Below the pieces are notes generated by a model that worked only from the letters and a program-made list of their open reading frames with translations, made no database searches and was not told the DNA's origin. A stretch of 64,000 nucleotides of DNA from Desulfobacteraceae bacterium (GTDB lineage: Bacteria > Desulfobacterota > Desulfobacteria > Desulfobacterales > JAABSP01), in NCBI GenBank assembly GCA_011390345.1, contig JAABSP010000012.1, positions 7,846 to 71,845 of the forward strand, written 5' to 3'. Both the position numbers and the translations under genes were made by a program. Each line of letters starts with the position of its first letter. Position 1 is the stretch's first letter. Shown one piece after another: positions 2,926-54,907 of the stretch.

Positions 2926-3001
2926 TGGTGGAGATGAGGGGATTCGAACCCCTGGCCTCAGCATTGCGAACGCTGCGCTCTCCCAACTGAGCTACATCCC
3001 C
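2926..3001 (-). tRNA. tRNA-Ala (anticodon CGC), CCA encoded
   Basis: The minus strand reads GGGGATGTAGCTCAGTTGGGAGAGCGCAGCGTTCGCAATGCTGAGGCCAGGGGTTCGAATCCCCTCATCTCCACCA. It folds as a cloverleaf with the G3:U70 alanine identity pair. The anticodon loop is TTCGCAA, giving anticodon CGC. The T-loop is GGTTCGAATCC. Confidence 0.9.
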
Positions 3002-3067: not shown

Positions 3068-3125
3068 AAAAAATGTTCAACTCTATCTTTTTTCTCTACA
3101 GCCCGGGTCCGGTTGAACATTTTTT
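3068..3125. promoter_or_regulatory. 14-bp perfect inverted repeat (AAAAAATGTTCAAC ... GTTGAACATTTTTT) with a 30-nt spacer, between tRNA-Ala and the YcaO-TPR gene
   Basis: The arms at 3068..3081 and 3112..3125 are exact reverse complements. The element lies in the divergent promoter region. Confidence 0.3.
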
Positions 3126-3151
3126 CGGGACACGGGTTTTCGGGACACGGG
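3122..3151 (+). promoter_or_regulatory. tandem 15-bp direct repeat (TTTTCGGGACACGGG x2) abutting a TATAAAAT -10-like box
   Basis: Two perfect copies lie at 3122..3136 and 3137..3151. They are followed by ccTATAAAAT (3154..3161), then GGAG and the ATG at 3180. There is no -35 match, so this looks like an activator-dependent promoter. Confidence 0.35.
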
Positions 3152-3179
3152 CCTATAAAATAGCGAGACGGAGATTTCC

Positions 3180-4925
3180 ATGAAGATACCCGAAAGATGC
3201 ATCCTCAAACCCAGAGATGTCCGCAAGACCTATTCCCATGACCAGGACAAGATCATCCCGCCCCATGAGACCCTGACCCGGTTCCGGGAGCGTCTGGCAG
3301 GTCTCGAACTCGACATCCTGCAGGAGACAGAGCGGATCGACAACGGACGGCTGGACATCCCGGTCTATTTCAGCACATGCGGAAAAGACGCGGCAGCCGC
3401 CACCGGAACCCGGAAGCAGATGGGGAAAGGGGCCGCGCCCGGGCAGGCCGAGGCGAGCGCGGTCATGGAGCTGGCAGAGCGCTTCAGCTTCTTCACTTTT
3501 TTGGGGAATCCTGAGAACTTCATCACGGAGAAGCTGGTCAATATCAAAGAAGATGCACTCCCTTTTTCCGAGATCGCACAGTCGGTACATGACACCTCTC
3601 GGGATCTGGAGAAGGCGCAGCAGGTCTTTGAAAACCTCTCCCTCCGGTGGACCTGGGGGTATGATCTTGGGGCGGAAAAGCCGGTACTCATCCCATTTGA
3701 CTGGTTCTACGCCATCAATGAATTCAACGGCCCCTCTGCCGGAAACTGCATGGAGGAGGCGATGGTGCAGGGGATCTGCGAGGTGGTGGAGCGCCATGTC
3801 TGCGCGATCGCCAGCCGAAACCGGCTGACCCTGCCGGCCATCCGCCCCGAATCGGCCACTGACCCTGCGGTGATGGAGATGCTGGAGAAGTATAAAAGAG
3901 CGGGGATCGAGGTCTTTCTCTCCGATTTCACGATGGATATGGGCATCCCCACCGTCGGGGTGCTCGCGTATGATCCGGAGACCTTTCCGGAGAAGAGCGA
4001 GATGGTCTGGACCGCGGGAACCGCACCCGATCCCCAGAAGGCATTGAGCCGGGCCCTCACCGAGACCGCACAGCTCGCGGGGGACTTCAACTCCGGAACC
4101 AGCTATGTGGCCAGCGGCCTTCCCAAGCTGACCAGCCTCTCCGAGGCGCACTTTCTCACCCACCCTGAAACTCATGTGGCGATCACGGATCTGCCGGATA
4201 TTTCAGATCAGAATCTGAAGACGGAGATCGAACGGGCTGTCTCCTGCATCTGCCAAAGGGGAATGCGGGTCTACTGCGTCAATACGACCCATCCGGAGCT
4301 TCAGATCCCCGCGCTCTACACCATCATTCCGGGGGCACGATTCCGGGAGCGGACCCAGGGGACGGGCGTCGGCATGTTTATGGCAAAGCTGATCGCGGAA
4401 AACCATCCGCCCCAAGAGGCTCTGGAGAAGATCAAAGAGATGGAGGGGGTGATGGGGAGGAAATACTACACTCGATTTCAGGCCGGCCTATCGACTCTCA
4501 ACATGGGAAAGCCGAGAGAGGCGCTCTTCATCTTCGAGGAGGCCATCGCGCTCGATCCGACCCTCCAGGATCTGGTGAGCATCTACTCATATATGGGCGT
4601 CGGATTGAAAGAGATGGAAGCCTATAAAAAGGCTCTGATCGTTCTGAAGAAGGGGGCTGCCATCGACAGCGGCCGCACCGACATCCACAACCTCATAGGC
4701 TTCTGCAACTTCAAGCTGAAGAACCACAAGGCCGCGATCCAAGCCTTCGAGAAGGTGCTGGCCATCGATCCGGGATCGGCCATCGACTATGCCAACATCG
4801 CAACCAACTATCGGGAGCTGGGGGACAGAGACAGCGCCATCGAATACTACCTCAAAGCCTTGACAATCGACCCTTCCATCGAATTTGCAAGGGAAAATCT
4901 GGACAAACTCCGGACGGGGAAGTAG
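3180..4925 (+). CDS. YcaO-domain protein fused to C-terminal TPR repeats
   Basis: The YcaO core signature is present: GTRKQMGKGAAPGQAEASAVMELAERFSFF, then ...SAGNCMEEAMVQGICEVVERH...GIPTVGV. The C-terminal ~170 aa are TPR-like (ALFIFEEAIALDP..., AIQAFEKVLAIDP..., AIEYYLKALTIDP...). Confidence 0.9.
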   Translation: MKIPERCILKPRDVRKTYSHDQDKIIPPHETLTRFRERLAGLELDILQETERIDNGRLDIPVYFSTCGKDAAAATGTRKQMGKGAAPGQAEASAVMELAERFSFFTFLGNPENFITEKLVNIKEDALPFSEIAQSVHDTSRDLEKAQQVFENLSLRWTWGYDLGAEKPVLIPFDWFYAINEFNGPSAGNCMEEAMVQGICEVVERHVCAIASRNRLTLPAIRPESATDPAVMEMLEKYKRAGIEVFLSDFTMDMGIPTVGVLAYDPETFPEKSEMVWTAGTAPDPQKALSRALTETAQLAGDFNSGTSYVASGLPKLTSLSEAHFLTHPETHVAITDLPDISDQNLKTEIERAVSCICQRGMRVYCVNTTHPELQIPALYTIIPGARFRERTQGTGVGMFMAKLIAENHPPQEALEKIKEMEGVMGRKYYTRFQAGLSTLNMGKPREALFIFEEAIALDPTLQDLVSIYSYMGVGLKEMEAYKKALIVLKKGAAIDSGRTDIHNLIGFCNFKLKNHKAAIQAFEKVLAIDPGSAIDYANIATNYRELGDRDSAIEYYLKALTIDPSIEFARENLDKLRTGK

Positions 4926-4966
4926 AATGAAGAGAGTAACCCCCTAACCAAAAGGAGGCAGGCAAG

Positions 4967-5170
4967 ATGGCACAAAAGACCTATACAGTTCCCAACATCA
5001 GTTGTGGCCACTGCGTCATGAGCATCAAAAACGAGCTGAGCGAGATGGAGGGCGTCAAGTCCGTGGAGGGTGATCCCGATGCCAAGAAGATCACGGTTGA
5101 CTTTGACGCACCGGCCAGCGAGGAGAAGATCGTCGGCAAAATGAAGGAGATCAACTACCCGCCGTCCTGA
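4967..5170 (+). CDS. copZ: heavy-metal-associated (HMA) domain protein, CopZ-like metallochaperone
   Basis: The 67-aa product has the motif SCGHCVMSIKNEL...GV..V and a ferredoxin-like HMA pattern. A strong RBS, AAAGGAGG, lies upstream. The gene starts 41 nt after the YcaO-TPR stop. Confidence 0.8.
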   Translation: MAQKTYTVPNISCGHCVMSIKNELSEMEGVKSVEGDPDAKKITVDFDAPASEEKIVGKMKEINYPPS

Positions 5171-5194
5171 TGCCCCTTTTTCGCTGTAGACCTG

Positions 5195-7546
5195 TCATAC
5201 AGACGCCTCGGCCCGATTGCGGGCCGAGGCATCGCTCTTTTCGGCCTCTTCTGCCAGCGCCGCTTTCAGCTCTTCGATCTGCTTTTCAATGGCCGCGCCC
5301 CTCTCCCCGATCTCCTTCAACGCCTTCGGGTCAGCCCCTTTCTTTTTGGGCCCCTGGTTTCCCACCAGGTCGGCAATAGCGGCCAAATCGGCCTCATATC
5401 CGCCGAACCGTTCCACCAGCTCCCGGTTGAGGTGATCTGACGCGCCGTGGGCCAGCTTGAAGAGGTACTGATACTTGAGGTTCTCCCGGTAATCCTTGAA
5501 ATGAAACCTGATAGATCCCAGCGCCTCTGCCCGCAATCGGGTCACTCCGTCCTTCAATGCCCGGATCTGTGTTCCGCCGTCCCCTTCCCGCCCGAAGAGC
5601 TTTTTGATAAGCCTGCCCAGGGAATAGACCCCGAAACGGATCACGGCCTCGGTCTTGATCCGGGCGCTGTAGCGCATCGCGGCCCTTGCCGGGGGCAGCT
5701 TGATCTTTTTCGTCTGCCGGATCCTGTCCATGTCCGGATTTTCGATGCTTCTGCCGTTGCGGCCGATTCCGGAGATCCCGAAGCCTTCCAAAGAGCGGTT
5801 GTATTCGTCCAGCGCATCGGCCAGCATCACATCATAGGGGCCCGTCACCGATTCGAAAAAGGAGAGGATCTTCTGCTCTTCGGCCTTGATGAACCGGATG
5901 ATCTCCGGGTTGACGGTCTCGGCCATGTAGCCGTCCACCGATCGCTTGAACTCCTGAAAGATCCGGTACATCTCCCTGGAGATCCGTTTTTTCCTTCCGG
6001 CCTCATCCTTCTTCTCGCCCTTGGGAGCCGGTGCAGAAGCGGGATAGGTGACGGGGCAGTTTTCCACGAACCGAAACAGATCCGGGAGAATGCTTTTGCG
6101 TCCGACCGGGTCGAAAAACCGATCCGCATCGGTCTTCAACTCTCCCTTGAGGCGCTGGGCCGCGCCGTCCAGGGTAGAGCGGATCATGGAACGGATTCCG
6201 GCCATCTTCTCCTGGTGGAACCGGATTTTTTGGACGATCTTCTCCCCCCCCTCGGGCCGCTGCTCGGACAGCTCCCGGGCCACCCGGACCTGGTGACCCG
6301 CGGCCGCGGCAATTGCCGACAGCTTTTCGAGCCCGTTTTTGAAGATCAGATGGTTCCGCTTCTCCGTCAGATGGTACCGGAAATCGGCAAGGAAGTTGTT
6401 TCTCCCCGCTCTGGAATAATCGGTAAGATCCGGCTCCTTCTCCCAGGCTTCGACGCGGCCCTGCTCCTTTTCGGAAAGAGAGGAACCCTCAGCCATAAAG
6501 AGATGGTGGAGCGCGGAAAAGGCATGGAGGGCCGGATCGGGAATGATCCTTCCGATCTCCGATTCGATCCTTTCGATCAAAGGGGTCAGCTCCGAAAGTC
6601 CGGGATGCTCATCCAGGTCGATATTGACAACAAAGAGGATCTGCTCCCCCATCCCCATCCGGCGCAGCATGTTCAGAAACCGGATGTCGGCCTGGCGCAG
6701 TCCTGTGCGGCTGCTGACCACATAGACGATCAGATGAGCCCCGGCAAGATAGTCCTGGATCATGGCCATGTGCCACGGGTTGGGAGAGTCGCTCCCCTGG
6801 CAGTCCGCGACCTCGGTGTTTTCATCCAGCAGATCCGCGTCGATGGTCAGTGAGAGATCGGAAAGATAGACCGCCAGCCGGTCATCGCCGGAAAACCGCT
6901 GGTGCTGGGGAAAGTCCCCGGCCTTATAGGTCTTGACCAGACTCTCCTTTTCCGCCAGAATCCCCGAGACTTCCGGATATCCCAGCAGAAAGGTCTCCAG
7001 CAGAACCGTGTCCGGGTTCCGTGTATCCTCTTCGATCCACTGTTCCGGCTTCAATGAGTGCAGCGCCGATGCAACGGCCTCCCGGTGATCCTCCTTCCGG
7101 ATATCGAATTCCGTCTCCTCCCACTGCCGGTCCGGAAAGAGGGTGAGTGCCCGCTGCATCTCCCCATTGACCTCCTCCCAGGATTTGAAGGTGAGCTGCG
7201 CGGTGAGCTTTTCCCCCTTTCGGATCCGGGTGACTATGGAGGTGACCACCCCGGCCCCCCGCTTGAGATAGTCCCTGCCCATGAGAGCATTGACAAAGGT
7301 ACTCTTTCCCGATTTGATGGGACCCACCACAGCGGTATGAACCGTGGAGAATTCATCGGGCTTCCGAACCTGTCGGCAGATCCCCTTCCATCGCTCTATA
7401 GGTTCGCCGTCGATCTTCAGCGCACTCTCCATCCGATCCAGCAGGGAGAGAAGCTCCCCCCCCACATCAAAAAGATCCTCCCGTTCAAAGCGGTCTTTTT
7501 CCACTTTCCTTCCTTGTTCCCCGTCCGATTCTATGCTATAGTTCAT
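5195..7546 (-). CDS. bacterial dynamin-like GTPase (BDLP/DynA family)
   Basis: G1 P-loop VVGPIKSGKSTFVNALMG. The dynamin-type G domain continues with DCQG...D and ...VVNIDLD (the NKxD-equivalent region). A long helical stalk makes up the rest of the 783 aa. Confidence 0.85.
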   Translation of the reverse strand: MNYSIESDGEQGRKVEKDRFEREDLFDVGGELLSLLDRMESALKIDGEPIERWKGICRQVRKPDEFSTVHTAVVGPIKSGKSTFVNALMGRDYLKRGAGVVTSIVTRIRKGEKLTAQLTFKSWEEVNGEMQRALTLFPDRQWEETEFDIRKEDHREAVASALHSLKPEQWIEEDTRNPDTVLLETFLLGYPEVSGILAEKESLVKTYKAGDFPQHQRFSGDDRLAVYLSDLSLTIDADLLDENTEVADCQGSDSPNPWHMAMIQDYLAGAHLIVYVVSSRTGLRQADIRFLNMLRRMGMGEQILFVVNIDLDEHPGLSELTPLIERIESEIGRIIPDPALHAFSALHHLFMAEGSSLSEKEQGRVEAWEKEPDLTDYSRAGRNNFLADFRYHLTEKRNHLIFKNGLEKLSAIAAAAGHQVRVARELSEQRPEGGEKIVQKIRFHQEKMAGIRSMIRSTLDGAAQRLKGELKTDADRFFDPVGRKSILPDLFRFVENCPVTYPASAPAPKGEKKDEAGRKKRISREMYRIFQEFKRSVDGYMAETVNPEIIRFIKAEEQKILSFFESVTGPYDVMLADALDEYNRSLEGFGISGIGRNGRSIENPDMDRIRQTKKIKLPPARAAMRYSARIKTEAVIRFGVYSLGRLIKKLFGREGDGGTQIRALKDGVTRLRAEALGSIRFHFKDYRENLKYQYLFKLAHGASDHLNRELVERFGGYEADLAAIADLVGNQGPKKKGADPKALKEIGERGAAIEKQIEELKAALAEEAEKSDASARNRAEASV
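5205..5230. terminator. GC-rich hairpin between convergent copZ-like and dynamin-like genes (possible bidirectional terminator)
   Basis: GCCTCGGCCC-gattgc-GGGCCGAGGC forms a 10-bp perfect stem. On the plus strand it is followed by atcgctctttt. It overlaps the last codons of the dynamin-like ORF. Confidence 0.4.
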
Positions 7547-7766: not shown

Positions 7767-8339
7767 TCAGGCGTGACCCGCGGTATCGGAGAGCAGGGCC
7801 GGATCGATGCCGATGCCCCGCATGGCCGCCTCCCAGCGGGCGTCGATATCGGTTTCGAAGATGATCTCTTCGAGCAATGGCCCCGTGAGCCAGGCATTCT
7901 CCCGGATCTCAGCCTCCAGTTGAGACGGCCCCCAACCCGCGCACCCCAGCGCGATGACCGCCGCAACCGGCCCCTCATCCCGGGCCACGGCCCGCAGAAG
8001 ATCCATGGTATTGCTCATGGCCAGCGCCGGAGTGATGGGGAGGCATCCCTCCCAGTGAAAGGGAGGCCCATGCAGGATAAAGATCTCGTTCATATGCACG
8101 GGCCCGCCGATATGGATCGGCAGTTGAGCGGATCTTTTCGTATATTCCAGTTTCAATTCCTCAAAGATGTTCTTGGCCGTCAGAGTCTCATGCTGTCGGT
8201 TGATCACGATGCCCACAGCCCCCTCTGCAGTGTGTTCGCACATGCAGGTGACGGTCTGGGAGAAATTGGGATCGGCCAGTCCCGGCATGGACATGAGGAA
8301 CTGCCCCTTGAGGGACTCAGGATTCGTCGGGTTTTCCAT
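7767..8339 (-). CDS. YqgE/AlgH family protein (UPF0301)
   Basis: LKGQFLMSMPGLADPNFSQTVTCMCEHTAEGAVGIVINR is the family-defining N-terminal block. Confidence 0.9.
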   Translation of the reverse strand: MENPTNPESLKGQFLMSMPGLADPNFSQTVTCMCEHTAEGAVGIVINRQHETLTAKNIFEELKLEYTKRSAQLPIHIGGPVHMNEIFILHGPPFHWEGCLPITPALAMSNTMDLLRAVARDEGPVAAVIALGCAGWGPSQLEAEIRENAWLTGPLLEEIIFETDIDARWEAAMRGIGIDPALLSDTAGHA

Positions 8340-10726: not shown

Positions 10727-11110
10727 TCAAACCAGATGAACGTCATACTGCCTGATCAATTCATCATTCGTGATGATGATCATATTTTCAGCAACTGCCT
10801 GGGCGATCAGTATCCGATCAAAGGGGTCTTTATGATGCATGGGTAGTTTGAACACCGTCAGCGCATGTTCGGTTGTAATATCCAGAGACTGGATATCGTT
10901 CAAGACAAGTTGTTTCCGAACGAAGTCAACAACCGACTCCGGAAGGATCAATTTTCCGATCTGAGCTTTTATGGCCATTTCCCATGCGCTGGCGGCGCTC
11001 AAAAACAGGTTTTCGTCTGTTTCGCCCAGCAGCAGCCGGGTTTCTTTATCCAATTTCGGATTGTCCAGAACCCACCACAGGAAGATATGAGTATCCAAGA
11101 GATAGCTCAT
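10727..11110 (-). CDS. vapC: type II toxin VapC (PIN domain ribonuclease)
   Basis: YLLDTHIFLWW...SAASAWEMAIK...DPFDRILIAQA...IITND contains the PIN acidic residues. It overlaps the upstream antitoxin gene by 4 nt. Confidence 0.9.
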   Translation of the reverse strand: MSYLLDTHIFLWWVLDNPKLDKETRLLLGETDENLFLSAASAWEMAIKAQIGKLILPESVVDFVRKQLVLNDIQSLDITTEHALTVFKLPMHHKDPFDRILIAQAVAENMIIITNDELIRQYDVHLV

Positions 11111-11355
11111 TTATAGAATTCCGCCAGCATCTCATCATCCAGGGGCTCTTCAAAATCATCCGCCATCCAGATCATTCCCTTTGCTGAACCGGGCTTCCGC
11201 TTTTTCTTAACGCTTTTTTTCCTGTCTTCATCCGATTCGACCAAAACAATGATTTCAACGTCTTTTCCGATCATCGTTTTCGGTATCGGCAAATTCAGGA
11301 CTTCCGAATCAATATGTGCTTTGATTTTTAGCGCTTCCATATTAAAATTCTCCAA
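11107..11355 (-). CDS. type II antitoxin (DUF2281-like) paired with VapC
   Basis: 82 aa with the C-terminal motif WMADDFEEPLDDEMLAEFY typical of DUF2281 antitoxins. It is translationally coupled to vapC. GC content is locally lower. Confidence 0.7.
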   Translation of the reverse strand: MENFNMEALKIKAHIDSEVLNLPIPKTMIGKDVEIIVLVESDEDRKKSVKKKRKPGSAKGMIWMADDFEEPLDDEMLAEFYK

Positions 11356-48093: not shown

Positions 48094-48675
48094 TTATACG
48101 CCGAAGACCGCGTCCAGATCGATGACAAGCCCCTCGATGGATGCGGTCTTTTTGCTTCCGCCCTCCAGAATTTCCGTTGCGCCATATCGGCCGTCAGGCC
48201 CCAGGATACGAACGTAGAGAATATTATCCGCCGGATGAATGATCCAGTACTCTTTTACACCATGTTTTTCGTATAAGGAGAGCTTCCGGATCTGATCCTT
48301 GGCCGCAGTGGAAGGCGACAGGATTTCGATGATGAAATCCGGCGCGCCCCGACACCCCCGGTCATCGACCTTTGAAGAATCACAGACCACGGAAAAATCC
48401 GGCTGCACAACGGTGATGATCTCGTCATCCGCCTCATTCTTCTCCGGTAGCCGGACATCGAAGGGCGCAATATAGGGAATACACTCGCTGTCCTGTAAAT
48501 GATTGCTGATCTGACGGCCCAGTTCCAACAGGATTCGCTGATGACGTGGATGGGGTGCAGGACTCATATCATAAGGAACCCCTTGGATCAGCTCACATCG
48601 TTCCTCATCGGGCCAGTTTCGGTAATCTCTATAGGTTAGGATCTCTTTTTCGTTTTTCAAGCTCGGCATCGACAT
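48094..48675 (-). CDS. Uma2-family (DUF820) restriction-endonuclease-fold protein, copy 1
   Basis: ...WPDEERCELIQGVPYDMSPAPHPRHQ...VVQPDFSVVCD...GAPDFIIEILSPSTAAKDQIRKLSLYEKHGVKEYWII contains the PD-(D/E)xK core. Confidence 0.85.
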   Translation of the reverse strand: MSMPSLKNEKEILTYRDYRNWPDEERCELIQGVPYDMSPAPHPRHQRILLELGRQISNHLQDSECIPYIAPFDVRLPEKNEADDEIITVVQPDFSVVCDSSKVDDRGCRGAPDFIIEILSPSTAAKDQIRKLSLYEKHGVKEYWIIHPADNILYVRILGPDGRYGATEILEGGSKKTASIEGLVIDLDAVFGV

Positions 48676-48734
48676 GGCATTTGCTCACCCTTTGAAATTG
48701 TTGAATGGCCGGGATGTAAGCGCCCCAAACCGTT

Positions 48735-49316
48735 TCATACGCTGAAGACCGCGTCCAGATCGATGATAAGTTCCGGAACGGCTGCGATCTTTTTGCTTCC
48801 GCCCACCACGATTTCCGACACACCGTATCGACCGTCGGGGCCGAGGGTCCGGACATAGAGGATGTTGTCCGTGGGATGGATGATCCAATACTCTTTCACC
48901 CCATGCTTTTCGTAGAGCGAGAGCTTCCGGGTCTGATCCTTGGCTGCGGTCGACGGCGACAGGATTTCGATGATGAAATCCGGCGCGCCCCGACACCCCC
49001 GGTCATCGACCTTTGAAGAATCACAGACGACCGCAAGATCCGGCTGGACAACGGTGATGATCTCGTCATCGGCCTCATCCTTCTCAGGAAGCCGGAAATC
49101 GTAGGGCGCCACAAAGAGCCTGCAGTCTCTGTTCATTAAACATCGGAAAATCTGGTAGTTCAGCGCCACAAGGATCTCCTGATGGCGGGTATTGGGTGCA
49201 GGACTCATATCATAAGGAACCCCTTGGATCAGCTCCCATCGTTCCTCTCCGGGCCAGTTCCGGTAATCCCCATAGGTGAGGATCTCTTTTTCGTTTTTCA
49301 GATTCGGCATCGACAT
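48735..49316 (-). CDS. Uma2-family (DUF820) restriction-endonuclease-fold protein, copy 2
   Basis: This is a paralog of copy 1. The start is set at ATG 49316 (MSMPNLKNEK), preceded by AAAGGAGAG at 8 nt, matching the copy 1 start context. The track start at 49343 is an upstream extension. Confidence 0.85.
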   Translation of the reverse strand: MSMPNLKNEKEILTYGDYRNWPGEERWELIQGVPYDMSPAPNTRHQEILVALNYQIFRCLMNRDCRLFVAPYDFRLPEKDEADDEIITVVQPDLAVVCDSSKVDDRGCRGAPDFIIEILSPSTAAKDQTRKLSLYEKHGVKEYWIIHPTDNILYVRTLGPDGRYGVSEIVVGGSKKIAAVPELIIDLDAVFSV

Positions 49317-49346
49317 GGCATTTGCTCTCCTTTTCATGCTCATCTA

Positions 49347-51805: not shown

Positions 51806-52583
51806 GGAAGAGGACAAGATTCCCTTTACCGAGCATCTGGAGGAGCTTAGAACCCGGCTGATCAACTCCTTTATCGCTGTCTTCATCGGCTTTTTCATCT
51901 GCTACTTCTTCAAGGAAACTCTTTTCCAGATTCTCACCGCGCCGCTGATTGCGGTCATGGGCGAGGGGGACAAGCTGATCTTCACCAATCTGCCCGAGGC
52001 CTTCTTCACCTACCTGAAGGTGGCCTTGCTGGCCGGGATCATGCTGGCCGCGCCCTTCCTTTTCTACCAGTTCTGGATGTTCGTCGCGCCGGGCCTCTAT
52101 CAGAAGGAGCGCCGGATTCTGATCCCCATCGTTCTTCTCTCTTCGATCTTCTTTGTGGGGGGCGCGCTCTTCGGCTATTTCATCGTCTTCCCCTGGGGTT
52201 TCAAATTCTTTTTAGGGTTTGCAAGCGAGACTATCCGGCCCCTTCCCTCCATGAAGGAGTATCTGAGTTTTTCCAGCAAGCTGCTGATCGCGTTCGGCGT
52301 AGTCTTCGAGCTTCCCCTGGTGCTCACCTTCATGGCCCGGCTGGGGATGGTTTCGGTCGATTTTCTGAAGAAGAACCGAAAATATGCGCTGCTGCTCTTT
52401 TTTATCGGTTCGGCCATTCTCACCCCGCCCGATGTGGTGACGCAGGTGATGATGGCGCTTCCCCTGATGCTGCTCTACGAGGTCAGCATCATCGGCGCGC
52501 GGATCTTTGGCCGGAAGCCTTTGGATGCGGATTTGCCGGACATGGATGAGGATGAATTGAAACAGAAGAAAGATAAAGCATGA
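51798..52583 (+). CDS. tatC: twin-arginine translocase subunit TatC
   Basis: FTEHLEELRTRLI..., six TM helices, ...LTPPDVVTQ... It overlaps tatA/B by 8 nt. Confidence 0.93.
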   Translation: MLREEDKIPFTEHLEELRTRLINSFIAVFIGFFICYFFKETLFQILTAPLIAVMGEGDKLIFTNLPEAFFTYLKVALLAGIMLAAPFLFYQFWMFVAPGLYQKERRILIPIVLLSSIFFVGGALFGYFIVFPWGFKFFLGFASETIRPLPSMKEYLSFSSKLLIAFGVVFELPLVLTFMARLGMVSVDFLKKNRKYALLLFFIGSAILTPPDVVTQVMMALPLMLLYEVSIIGARIFGRKPLDADLPDMDEDELKQKKDKA

Positions 52584-54337
52584 CAGACAACGATAAACCG
52601 ATCCAGCGGGAAACCTTCGACGATTTCAACTACCCTCTTCCCATGGAATATCTTCTGGAGCTGGAGGATACTTCGGCAAGCTCCGGATATTTCGGCTGCG
52701 TCCCAAAGGAAGAGCGGGTTTTCAGCGCGGGGCTGGCCTATTTAAGAGAACGGCCCTATGATGAGTTTCTCCATAAAAGGCTCCTCAATGCAATGCAGGT
52801 GCTGCCCCAGAGCCGGATCGTGGAGTGGATCAAGGAGACCGGGCCGGGCGCGGAAAAGGAGGCGGACAAGGTCTTCCGGGCCATGCTCTATGAAGCCTGT
52901 ATCCTCTACGAGCGATTCAATCCCCTGCTGTGGCGCTTCAAGGCCGAAGAGATCGAAGAACTTGCGGCCCATACGCCGCTGGTCTATATCAAATCGGTCA
53001 ATATGCCGGATCATGAGCTGCACCTGCAGTGGATGGGGGCGTTTGCAGGAAACATCGGAAAGCACCAGCTCCTGCCGAAATCTGCCGATGCCGGGGTCTC
53101 CTTTCCGGTATCGGATGAGGCCATCAAAGCCGCAGAGGGTATCGTTCCGGTGCAAAAGATCCGGCTTCAATTCAAAAGCGATGAGAAGATCATGGCCTGT
53201 GCGCCCCAGCCCCCGGAAACCGTGGCGCAGGAGGCGATCACCCGGCTGGAGCGGATGGGTGTTCTGGAAGGACCCGAGATGCGCCACATGACCTCCCTTT
53301 CTCCGATGGGGCTTCTCCGGAAATGGCATATGGGGCTTCGGGTGGTCAACGGCCGCCTCGACTATCTTCTCTCGGGAATCCAGACCTCCTATGGCCGGGG
53401 GATCGACGAGAATTCGGCCCGGGCCTCCTGCGCGATGGAGGTGGCCGAGCGGGTCTCCTCTTTTGCCGGCATCGGGGATCAGGGGGTGCTGGATCGGACC
53501 TATACCTATCCCCTCACCCATGCCCGGTACAGCAGACTGAAAAATGACGGGATCGAGGCCCTGGACCCGAACCGGCTCCATCTGGAGGCCCCATACCATG
53601 ACGAGCCCCTCTACTGGATCTCCGGAGAGCGGGCACACGGGACCGCGGTTCTGGTGCCGGCCCAGTGCGTCTTTCTCTTTGCCAACCTGGATGAAATCTC
53701 CCTCTTCTCCGGGCTCGGCTCAACAGGGCTGGCCTCGGGAACCACGTTGACAGGGGCCAAGGTGAGCGCGCTGCTGGAGTGCATCGAGCGGGATGCCGAG
53801 GGAACCACGCCCTTTCATCTGGAGGGTTGCTTTATCCTGGAAACCGATGATCCCGAGATCTCAAAACTTCTTGGGGAATACCGGGAAAAGGGGGTGCAGG
53901 TCTGGTTTCAGGAAATCACCTCGGCCTTTGGGGTTCCCTGCTTTAAATCCTTTGTGATCGGCCCAGACGGCGAGATTGCAAAGGGTGTGGGCGCGCATCT
54001 CAACGGCCGGCGGGCGCTTCTCTCCGCGATGACCGAAACGCCCTACCCTTTTCCGTCGGGGCCCCCCTCACTGCCGGGGCCGCCCGATCTTCCGGCTCGA
54101 AAACTGGAGGATCTGCCGGACTTCTCCACGGGCCGTGCCGAGACCGATCTTCAGCTTCTGGAGGCGCTGCTGACGGAAAACCGCGCCGCGCCCATATATG
54201 TGGAGATCACCCGGACAGACCTCTCCATTCCCGTTGTCCGAGCCATTGTTCCGGGGCTTGCCCTGTCTGCCGATTTTGACCGCTTCTCCAGGGTTCACCC
54301 CCGGCTCTTTGCCAACTATCTCAGGATGTACGGGTAA
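52580..54337 (+). CDS. YcaO-domain protein with ~210-aa unassigned N-terminal domain
   Basis: The YcaO core is SYGRGIDENSARASCAMEVAERVSSFAG...GLASGTTLTGAKVSALLECIERDA...FGVPCF... The ATG overlaps the tatC stop (ATGA at 52580..52583). Confidence 0.88.
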   Translation: MTDNDKPIQRETFDDFNYPLPMEYLLELEDTSASSGYFGCVPKEERVFSAGLAYLRERPYDEFLHKRLLNAMQVLPQSRIVEWIKETGPGAEKEADKVFRAMLYEACILYERFNPLLWRFKAEEIEELAAHTPLVYIKSVNMPDHELHLQWMGAFAGNIGKHQLLPKSADAGVSFPVSDEAIKAAEGIVPVQKIRLQFKSDEKIMACAPQPPETVAQEAITRLERMGVLEGPEMRHMTSLSPMGLLRKWHMGLRVVNGRLDYLLSGIQTSYGRGIDENSARASCAMEVAERVSSFAGIGDQGVLDRTYTYPLTHARYSRLKNDGIEALDPNRLHLEAPYHDEPLYWISGERAHGTAVLVPAQCVFLFANLDEISLFSGLGSTGLASGTTLTGAKVSALLECIERDAEGTTPFHLEGCFILETDDPEISKLLGEYREKGVQVWFQEITSAFGVPCFKSFVIGPDGEIAKGVGAHLNGRRALLSAMTETPYPFPSGPPSLPGPPDLPARKLEDLPDFSTGRAETDLQLLEALLTENRAAPIYVEITRTDLSIPVVRAIVPGLALSADFDRFSRVHPRLFANYLRMYG

Positions 54338-54352
54338 AAACAGGTTCTGAAG

Positions 54353-54907
54353 ATGGACCTGCCTCTCCCCCCTCCCCTGCGGACCCGCTGGTGCGTGATC
54401 ACGGGCGCGCCCTGTTCCGGAAAGACCACGGTGATCGACATCCTCGCTCGCCAGGGTTTTCACACGGCTCTGGAGGAGGCCCGGGCATATATCGACGAGG
54501 AGTTGGACAAGGGCAGAACCATCGAGGAGATCCGATCGGACCTGCTCTCCTTCGAGCGAAACATTCTCCACCGGAAGATCCGATCCGAAGAGGGGCTTCC
54601 CCGGGAGGAGCGGGTCTTTCTGGACCGGGCCCTGCCGGACAGCGTCGCCTATTATCGAATGGACGGCCTGAACCCGGAAGAGCCGTTGGCTTTTGCCCGG
54701 AAATACCGGTATGAAAGGGTATTCTTCTTCGAACCGCTCAAATTCCAAAAGGATCGGGTCCGGGCAGAGGACGAGGAGCGGGCGCAAAAGCTGGACTGGC
54801 TCCTCAGTTCAGCCTATCACAGCCTCGGATACGATCTCATCCGGGTTCCGGTTGTGTCGATCCCGGACCGGGTGCGGCTCGTTCTGACGGCTCTAAACGA
54901 CGGATGA
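54353..54907 (+). CDS. AAA_28 / NadR-type small P-loop ATPase
   Basis: Walker A is ITGAPCSGKTT. The pattern ...FLDRALPDSVAYY..., ...RVFFFEPL... is typical of the AAA_28 family. Confidence 0.7.
   Translation: MDLPLPPPLRTRWCVITGAPCSGKTTVIDILARQGFHTALEEARAYIDEELDKGRTIEEIRSDLLSFERNILHRKIRSEEGLPREERVFLDRALPDSVAYYRMDGLNPEEPLAFARKYRYERVFFFEPLKFQKDRVRAEDEERAQKLDWLLSSAYHSLGYDLIRVPVVSIPDRVRLVLTALNDG

Follow-up and report, generated by a model that had tools for sequence, protein, structure and literature searches.

We analyzed 64,000 nucleotides of Desulfobacteraceae bacterium (assembly GCA_011390345.1, contig JAABSP010000012.1, positions 7,846 to 71,845 of the forward strand), referred to here as the window. 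Near its start lies a gene encoding a 581-aa protein that joins an N-terminal YcaO domain to C-terminal tetratricopeptide repeats (TPR), referred to as YcaO-TPR, and 41 nt downstream of it lies a gene for a small CopZ-like HMA protein. A divergent tRNA-Ala(CGC) gene marks the upstream boundary of the YcaO-TPR unit. A convergent gene for a dynamin-like GTPase, which is not part of the system, marks the downstream boundary. The coordinates of these features are listed in Table 1.

An earlier note on this DNA had described the 581-aa protein as a complete YcaO domain followed by about five TPR motifs, and the open reading frame (ORF), the Pfam matches, and an AlphaFold2 model agree with this description. 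PF02624 matched over its full length (profile positions 1-325 of 325) with 257.5 bits against a cut-off of 25.7, and several Pfam TPR families matched residues ~430-575 (TPR_1, E 1.7e-20). The AlphaFold2 model, which like our motif-invariance alignment (A1) was built on 45 sequences, has a pLDDT of 90.9. Its 11 helices between residues 397 and 579 are predicted to form about five TPR hairpins and a capping helix, and this part of the model matched consensus TPR proteins and MamA in Foldseek.

We then located the ATP/Mg signatures of the YcaO superfamily, SxxxExxE, Sx6-7Ex3Qx3ExxER, and RxxxE. The second of these is present in the form Sx6Ex3Qx3ExxER, as defined in PMC7774982. All three motifs align to those of MJ1094, LynD, and TruD, and the loss of ATP-binding residues that the earlier note had considered was not seen. 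S93, E97, and E100 of motif 1, the key residues of motif 2, and R291 and E295 of motif 3 are invariant across the 45 aligned sequences. Motifs 1 and 2 are also kept in 18 of the 19 deep-lineage representatives checked, and motif 3 was recovered in most of them. The YcaO domain is thus predicted to be complete, with its ATP/Mg motifs intact.

Table 1. Positions of the YcaO-TPR gene, its neighbors, and other features in the window
Feature	Position	Strand	Description and basis
tRNA-Ala(CGC)	2926..3001	-	ARAGORN; divergent neighbor, upstream boundary of the YcaO-TPR unit
YcaO-TPR gene	3180..4925	+	ORF, 581 aa; Pfam domains; putative DVU2210-type family of Thermodesulfobacteriota
YcaO domain	3420..4340	+	Residues 81-387; Pfam PF02624, E 2.6e-76
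ATP/Mg motif 1, S93-x3-E97-x2-E100	3456..3479	+	SAVMELAE, residues 93-100; alignment to MJ1094, LynD, TruD
ATP-binding motif 2, S186-x6-E-x3-Q-x3-E-x2-ER	3735..3794	+	SAGNCMEEAMVQGICEVVER, residues 186-205; alignment to MJ1094, LynD, TruD
Motif 3, R291-x3-E295	4050..4064	+	RALTE; aligned to RALTE of MJ1094, TruD, LynD
C-terminal TPR domain	4368..4916	+	Residues ~397-579; Pfam TPR families, AlphaFold2 model, Foldseek
Sigma70-like promoter match, TGGACA-17-TAGAAT	4900-4928	+	Consensus scan, 10/12 matches; consensus match only
Ribosome-binding site of HMA gene, AGGAGG	4953-4958	+	Read in sequence
CopZ-like HMA gene	4967..5170	+	ORF, 67 aa; Pfam HMA PF00403, E 7.6e-17
Dynamin-like GTPase gene	5195..7546	-	783 aa; Pfam Dynamin_N; downstream boundary, not part of the system
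GC-rich hairpin	5205-5230		11 bp, perfect; fold of 86-nt segment -34.3 kcal/mol, z = -3.9
Second YcaO gene	52580..54337	+	585 aa; YcaO domain residues 272-487; separate system

To place the protein within the YcaO superfamily, we collected its relatives. A search of 5.8 billion proteins returned more than 5,000 homologues. The best 120 are all full length (mostly 570-597 aa), share 60-64% identity with the window protein, and come almost entirely from Desulfobacterales or other Thermodesulfobacteriota, such as Desulfonema magnum. The closest locus in our set (L001; loci are numbered in this way throughout) belongs to a 99%-identical sister strain, likewise a Desulfobacteraceae bacterium. A protein library clustered at 50% identity contained ~20-25 full-length representatives at 34-59% identity, with named members from Desulfobulbus, Desulfatiglandales, Desulfonatronovibrionaceae, Desulfovibrio/Humidesulfovibrio, and Thermodesulfobacterium. 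Among them, P0144/P0290 from Desulfonatronovibrionaceae are 39% identical to the window protein, and P0174 from a Desulfovibrio-like group is 46% identical over residues 12-234. A search with P0174 returned mostly partial proteins of the Desulfovibrio group, and its relatives are Desulfovibrio species. By these comparisons, we place the window protein, as a typical representative, in a conserved family of stand-alone YcaO-TPR proteins of sulfate- and sulfite-reducing Thermodesulfobacteriota. The fusion is not unusual: it is the shared architecture of a large conserved family of sulfate reducers, and genetic work on this family has been done with DVU2210 (PMC7774982).

In Desulfovibrio vulgaris Hildenborough, DVU2210 carries the description "YcaO-like, TPR domain protein" (Zane, Wall & De Leon 2020, PMC7774982). 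Based on the shared architecture, the Desulfovibrionales homologues, and motif matches, we infer that the window family is of the DVU2210 type. The 20-mer motif of DVU2210 printed in that study (PMC7774982) agrees with P0174 in 18 of its 20 residues and with the window protein in 13, and the motif 2 region of the window protein corresponds to the stretch that holds the S195R substitution of DVU2210. The two proteins share their domain order, the Sx6Ex3Qx3ExxER type of ATP motif, their phylum, and their lifestyle. In contrast to DVU2210, the window protein belongs to a crown clade of Desulfobacterales and has a CopZ-like gene after it. DVU2210 is the only studied family member that we could find. 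What is known of it comes from molybdate and syntrophy genetics (PMC7774982, PMC8319347).

We examined the genomic context of YcaO-TPR in 148 crown-clade loci (68 from genomes and 80 from metagenomes) and in 12 deep lineages. In the commonest crown-clade context, dnaG, hisA, a lipoprotein gene, hisB, and tRNA-Ala(CGC) lie upstream on the opposite strand, and ParA, the dynamin-like gene, and an AlgH-like gene lie downstream in convergent orientation. The tRNA gene was present upstream in 19 of 19 backbone-type loci tested, and the dynamin-like gene was convergent in 71 of ~126 loci. YcaO-TPR itself is a single-gene unit in most genomes, situated between divergent and convergent housekeeping genes. 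Such a single-gene unit on a conserved backbone would be typical of a housekeeping function rather than of a cluster for a ribosomally synthesized and post-translationally modified peptide (RiPP). We rejected the dynamin-like, ParA, AlgH, and hisA/hisB/dnaG genes as functional partners because their synteny is that of a one-order backbone, their orientation is divergent or convergent, and they are absent from the deep lineages. The AlgH-like DUF179 gene (7767-8339, minus strand) and the dynamin-like gene form a conserved convergent block in most Desulfobacterales loci, often with a ParA-like gene separating the latter from YcaO-TPR. In the window, a 15-nt tandem duplication (TTTTCGGGACACGGG x2) is located at 3120-3152, ~30 nt before the YcaO-TPR start. 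It was rejected as a regulatory site because it is strain-specific: L001 has one copy, and the motif occurs in no other locus.

YcaO-TPR could also be central to a cryptic RiPP cluster with an overlooked precursor peptide, and the YcaO domain does resemble those of LynD, TruD, and MusD. As the earlier note had stated, however, no TfuA, E1-like partner, or dehydrogenase was found among the annotated genes from ~2.5 kb upstream to 5.5 kb downstream, and no small upstream ORF is conserved. The sole recurring upstream match, which we considered as a precursor peptide and discarded, is an antisense translation of the tRNA-Ala gene. An E1-like (Ocin-ThiF) partner, a dehydrogenase, or a precursor peptide is likewise not conserved across the 148 + 12 contexts, and no protease or transporter partner was found in any context. 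A C-terminal PxPxP motif is a feature of azoline-forming cyclodehydratase YcaOs; this motif occurs nowhere in the 581-aa protein. The azoline-forming cyclodehydratase model TIGR03604 scored 125.7 bits, below its cut-off of 219.25. The hallmarks of azoline-type enzymes are thus missing from the window protein. Together with the single-copy gene and its conserved chromosomal position amid housekeeping genes, these observations effectively refute the RiPP explanation.

Among solved structures, those of the Methanocaldococcus jannaschii YcaO (6pe3/6peu; sequence E 1e-22 and top match in Foldseek) come closest in sequence as well as in fold. The Methanopyrus kandleri YcaO (6ci7) also matched, and LynD stood level with the methanogen YcaOs in the fold search, above 6ci7. 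The best-scoring NCBIfam model was TIGR03266, for McrA-glycine thioamidation, with 140.5 bits and a cut-off of 365. The M. jannaschii (MJ1094) and M. kandleri enzymes thioamidate McrA, and MJ1094 works without TfuA in a sulfide-rich organism. TfuA was absent from every YcaO-TPR neighborhood examined. The nearest YcaO domain to that of the window protein acts on a large folded protein that belongs to an enzyme of core energy metabolism. Unlike the window protein, the methanogen enzyme lacks a TPR domain. It also comes from another phylum; the window host, a Desulfobacteraceae, has no methyl-coenzyme M reductase (MCR), and thioamidation by the window protein is a prediction only.

Two kinds of sulfur-handling genes recur next to YcaO-TPR in relatives. 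The first encodes an ATP-dependent sulfur transferase of the LarE family and, in 19 of ~113 loci (L007, L008, L031, L035, L039, L041, L043, L052, L065, and 10 metagenome loci, e.g., L113, L129, and L144), is the gene directly upstream, with the same orientation. These proteins score 302-321 bits on TIGR00268 (cut-off 150) and have three conserved cysteines, located in a CxxC motif and in ACLASR. The LarE stop codon and the YcaO-TPR start codon often overlap.

The second is a canonical dsrC. In 5 of the 12 deep lineages sampled, it is the immediate neighbor of YcaO-TPR, and both genes share a strand. It lies downstream of YcaO-TPR in L149-151 (Desulfonatronovibrionaceae), L155 (Desulfovibrio-like), L162/163, and L165, and upstream in L156. 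The adjacent DsrC proteins are 105-106 aa long, have both conserved catalytic cysteines, and in all five lineages end in ...ELFPSGPGKGACKMAGL(P/A)KPTGCV. The other genes around the YcaO-TPR/dsrC pair differ among all five lineages, which fall on three separate deep branches of a rough neighbor-joining tree. Taking a background of ~2/3000 per genome and 12 lineages, a rough binomial estimate of the chance of this adjacency, for lineages that are not fully independent, is 3e-5 if only two events are independent and 1e-13 if all five are. The DsrC/TusE family comprises sulfur carriers and the LarE family sulfur transferases. In the literature searched, we found no report that links a YcaO to DsrC or LarE. 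Other sulfur-handling neighbors were seen in L154, where MnmA is divergent and a NIL-ferredoxin gene lies 12 nt downstream of YcaO-TPR. In L162, dsrC is followed, two genes on, by a MiaB/RimO-like radical-SAM gene.

The earlier note had proposed, from the TPR module, that the client is a folded protein. This proposal is plausible and has a precedent in the E. coli YcaO. That enzyme carries a TPR domain of 150 residues, and its substrate for thioamidation, which proceeds without TfuA, is the folded protein uL16 (Rice et al. 2026, PMC13063428). Like the window protein, the E. coli enzyme has a YcaO domain followed by a C-terminal helical-repeat domain and is encoded by a stand-alone gene without TfuA, and its substrate is a folded protein, as proposed here. 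The E. coli structures (PDB 4q84-86) align with the model over both domains (~570-600 columns, TM 0.49, 17-18% identity), but the domain orientation differs, with an rmsd of 10-13 A. The TPRs of the window protein are canonical (TPR_1, E 1e-20), unlike the TPR-like domain of E. coli YcaO. We regard the family as a variant of the protein-modifying YcaO theme, with a canonical TPR domain, LarE in place of TfuA, and a link to DsrC.

This precedent allows a different client, namely another conserved housekeeping protein such as uL16, with LarE and DsrC serving only as lineage-specific sulfur donors. Such a role would suit the carrier and transferase functions of the two families, and it would suit the single-gene organization in most genomes. 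Several deep neighbors are also translation-related: lepA overlaps the YcaO-TPR start in L160, TsaE is a neighbor in L152, a PrmA/MTS-like methyltransferase gene overlaps the YcaO-TPR start in L149-151, and a PrmA-like gene is divergent in L161. Translation genes are common in any genome, however, so their proximity is weak evidence. The E. coli-type model NF040716 reached 54.4 bits against a cut-off of 700 and matched residues 167-298 only. The pI of the window protein is 5.4 and those of family members are 4.7-6.0, compared with ~4.4, complementary to uL16, for typical uL16-modifying YcaOs (PMC13063428). Considering both sides, including the difference in domain orientation, we regard a client of the uL16 kind as possible but not likely.

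We consider it moderately probable that YcaO-TPR activates backbone amides of protein clients, probably as a thioamide synthase, and is tied to DsrC and sulfur trafficking. In the mechanism we propose, the TPR domain would dock a folded protein client, and the YcaO domain would use ATP to O-phosphorylate one of the client's backbone amides. A sulfur nucleophile would then displace the phosphate to yield a thioamide. The sulfur could come from ambient sulfide, which is abundant in these organisms, from a LarE-type transferase, or from a DsrC persulfide. Both the thioamidation and the identity of the client are inferred. DsrC would be the most likely client or partner, either as a substrate through its flexible C-terminal arm (...GKGACKMAGLPKPTGCV) or as a sulfur donor. 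The flexible, Gly-rich DsrC arm is an extended segment of a type that YcaO enzymes take, and C-terminal tails are frequent ligands of TPR domains. DsrC is our best candidate because its flexible Gly-rich arm suits a YcaO/TPR enzyme as a substrate, or because its sulfur-carrier role suits a donor. As a more specific and tentative proposal, the family may install a backbone modification, most likely a thioamide, on DsrC's C-terminal arm (...PSGPGKGACKMAGLPKPTGCV), with sulfur from LarE-type proteins or ambient sulfide. Mechanistic studies of DsrC currently work with protein produced in E. coli, so a modification specific to sulfate-reducing bacteria could have been missed.

Several observations weigh against this proposal. 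No dsrC was found near YcaO-TPR in the 148 crown-clade loci and neither dsrC nor larE in the window, so the DsrC link comes from relatives at 37-47% identity. The tree that separates the five dsrC lineages carries no support values. The spacers between YcaO-TPR and dsrC are 89-202 nt long and contain strong promoter-like boxes, and a terminator follows dsrC in L156; the two genes are therefore probably adjacent without forming one transcript. The thioamidation model scores far below its cut-off (140 vs 365), and no thioamide or other backbone modification of DsrC was found in the literature searched. Orthology with DVU2210 is drawn from architecture, Desulfovibrionales homologues, and the printed 20-mer rather than from the whole sequence. 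Lastly, a ΔDVU2210 strain grows normally by sulfate respiration (PMC7774982), so any DVU2210-dependent modification would be non-essential.

The genetics of DVU2210 nevertheless fit a function that is associated with sulfate respiration and non-essential, because loss of the gene is advantageous without sulfate, is epistatic with sat for molybdate, and permits normal growth on sulfate. DVU2210 acquires mutations during sulfate-free syntrophic evolution (PMC7774982, PMC8319347). Molybdate resistance resulted from Δsat combined with either deletion of DVU2210 or S195R in its ATP motif, and DVU2210 is the only determinant of molybdate sensitivity besides Sat identified in that D. vulgaris study (PMC7774982).

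These molybdate data, including the point mutation in the ATP motif, favor another reading, in which the substrate is a small oxyanion or metabolite, for example in an ATP-consuming reaction with molybdate or a sulfur oxyanion as hypothesized for DVU2210 by Zane et al. (PMC7774982). Consistent with this reading, MoaE and PAPS-reductase-family genes lie near YcaO-TPR in L149 and L160. However, DVU2210 did not make E. coli sensitive to molybdate, and the authors note that the molybdate effect can be indirect (PMC7774982). Moreover, characterized YcaOs all activate backbone amides of peptides or proteins (PMC13063428), and the TPR domain is a protein-binding module. A small-molecule substrate is therefore improbable.

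Within its known but functionally unsolved family, the window gene is unremarkable, and this locus is of less interest in itself than the hypothesis reached from it, which gives the family its first concrete and testable functional proposal. Sulfate respiration matters globally in biogeochemistry and in industry, and DsrC is its central sulfur carrier. If the proposal is true, backbone thioamidation, so far known for MCR and uL16, would extend to the sulfate-reduction machinery, and LarE-type proteins would be possible TfuA-independent sulfur donors for YcaO enzymes. A hidden post-translational modification, analogous to the thioglycine of MCR, would lie at the center of dissimilatory sulfate reduction. 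It would also account for DVU2210 acting genetically as a sulfate-respiration gene and as a second molybdate target.

The gene downstream of YcaO-TPR offers another candidate client. In the earlier note, the HMA protein was put forward, speculatively, as the only nearby candidate for a folded substrate, with synteny in relatives as one check. In such a model, it would be bound by the TPR domain and modified by the YcaO domain near its Cys pair. The ORF and its strong ribosome-binding site (AGGAGG) are present as described there. PF00403 matched the 67-aa protein with 61.9 bits (cut-off 24.8), and its metal loop is ISCGHC (residues 11-16, C13-G-H-C16). The curated CopZ/CopP models remained below their cut-offs (TIGR00003, 51.5 vs 62; CopZ_Bs, 44.9 vs 91). 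In its HMA fold, its CxxC metal site, and its length, the protein resembles CopZ/CopP chaperones, and it differs from them in having ISCGHC in place of the usual GMxCxxC.

We counted HMA genes at this position over the ~126 loci with enough downstream sequence. An HMA gene directly follows YcaO-TPR in 12 of them and in none of the 12 deep lineages sampled, so the synteny whose absence the earlier note had named as a refutation is largely lacking. The 12 proteins form one tight orthologous, CopZ-like group (IPNISCGHCVMxIKNEL...INYPA). In 8 of the 12 loci, the next gene encodes a CopA-type P-type ATPase, identified by Pfam for L053 and by >200-bit matches to the L053 protein for the other seven; L013 is a ninth locus, with an HMA-rich protein nearby. 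The HMA genes of the window, L001, and L142 have no adjacent copA, and no CopA was found anywhere in the 64-kb window. From this synteny, the single CopZ group, and its CopA partners, the window HMA protein is most likely a CopZ-type copper-chaperone remnant of a copZ-copA pair and stands outside the YcaO chemistry. The gene orders are most simply read as the insertion of a copZ-copA pair after YcaO-TPR in one sub-lineage, followed by loss or relocation of copA in the window strain. In L069, L072, L077, L085, and L087, a CopA-like P-type ATPase gene lies ~1 kb after YcaO-TPR with no HMA ORF detected between, which suggests further variants of a copper-efflux association.

A substrate role for the HMA protein draws on the shared strand, the short gap without a terminator, and the exact position that the orthologous gene holds in 12 loci, even without an adjacent copA. 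The gap is only 16 nt in L053 and L054, and a residual functional link, such as co-expression in these two loci, may exist. On the other hand, a conserved enzyme needs a conserved client, and the HMA gene is missing from this position in ~90% of loci and in all deep lineages sampled. The protein that accompanies most of these HMA genes is the classical CopZ partner, and a promoter-like box precedes the window HMA gene. We consider it very unlikely that the HMA protein is the substrate.

The transcription of the two genes was also reconsidered. The earlier note had taken the GC-rich hairpin after the HMA gene as the end of a shared transcript. The hairpin is real, but it lacks a canonical T tract and sits within the final codons of the dynamin-like gene, which is convergent. 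In L001, ~310 nt of extra sequence separate the HMA and dynamin-like genes (L001 5992-6327 vs window 5171-5195), and the hairpin stays with the dynamin-like gene, ~310 nt from the HMA gene. We discarded the hairpin as proof of an operon because it belongs to the 3' end of the dynamin-like gene. Because the L001 insertion is missing from the window, the junction of the convergent genes appears to be a strain-variable insertion site. In addition, a sigma70-like box lies 38 nt before the HMA start codon and is a possible promoter of its own for this gene. Co-transcription of YcaO-TPR and the HMA gene remains plausible, and these three features weaken the case for it.

The window contains a second YcaO gene, 49 kb from the first, whose product is 21% identical to the first YcaO. 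The earlier note had counted the two as divergent and partner-less. The divergence was borne out, and the lack of partners was overstated: relatives of the first have recurrent LarE or DsrC neighbors, and the second does not stand alone, since its ATG shares bases with the stop codon of tatC (ATGA) following tatA/B-tatC and the gene is predicted to be translationally coupled to tatC. A Tat-coupled YcaO is unusual. The N-terminal 270 aa of this protein have no Pfam match, and in its degenerate ATP motif 2 other residues take the place of the first Glu and the Gln. An AAA_28 ATPase gene begins 16 nt after it (region 52580-54907).

Elsewhere in the window, two tandem genes of the Uma2 family (putative restriction endonuclease-like) encode proteins of 193 and 202 aa (48094-49343, minus strand). 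A PIN/VapC-like ORF of 127 aa (10727-11355, minus strand) is overlapped by an upstream 82-aa ORF, and, judged by eye from the translation, the two look like a type II toxin-antitoxin pair.

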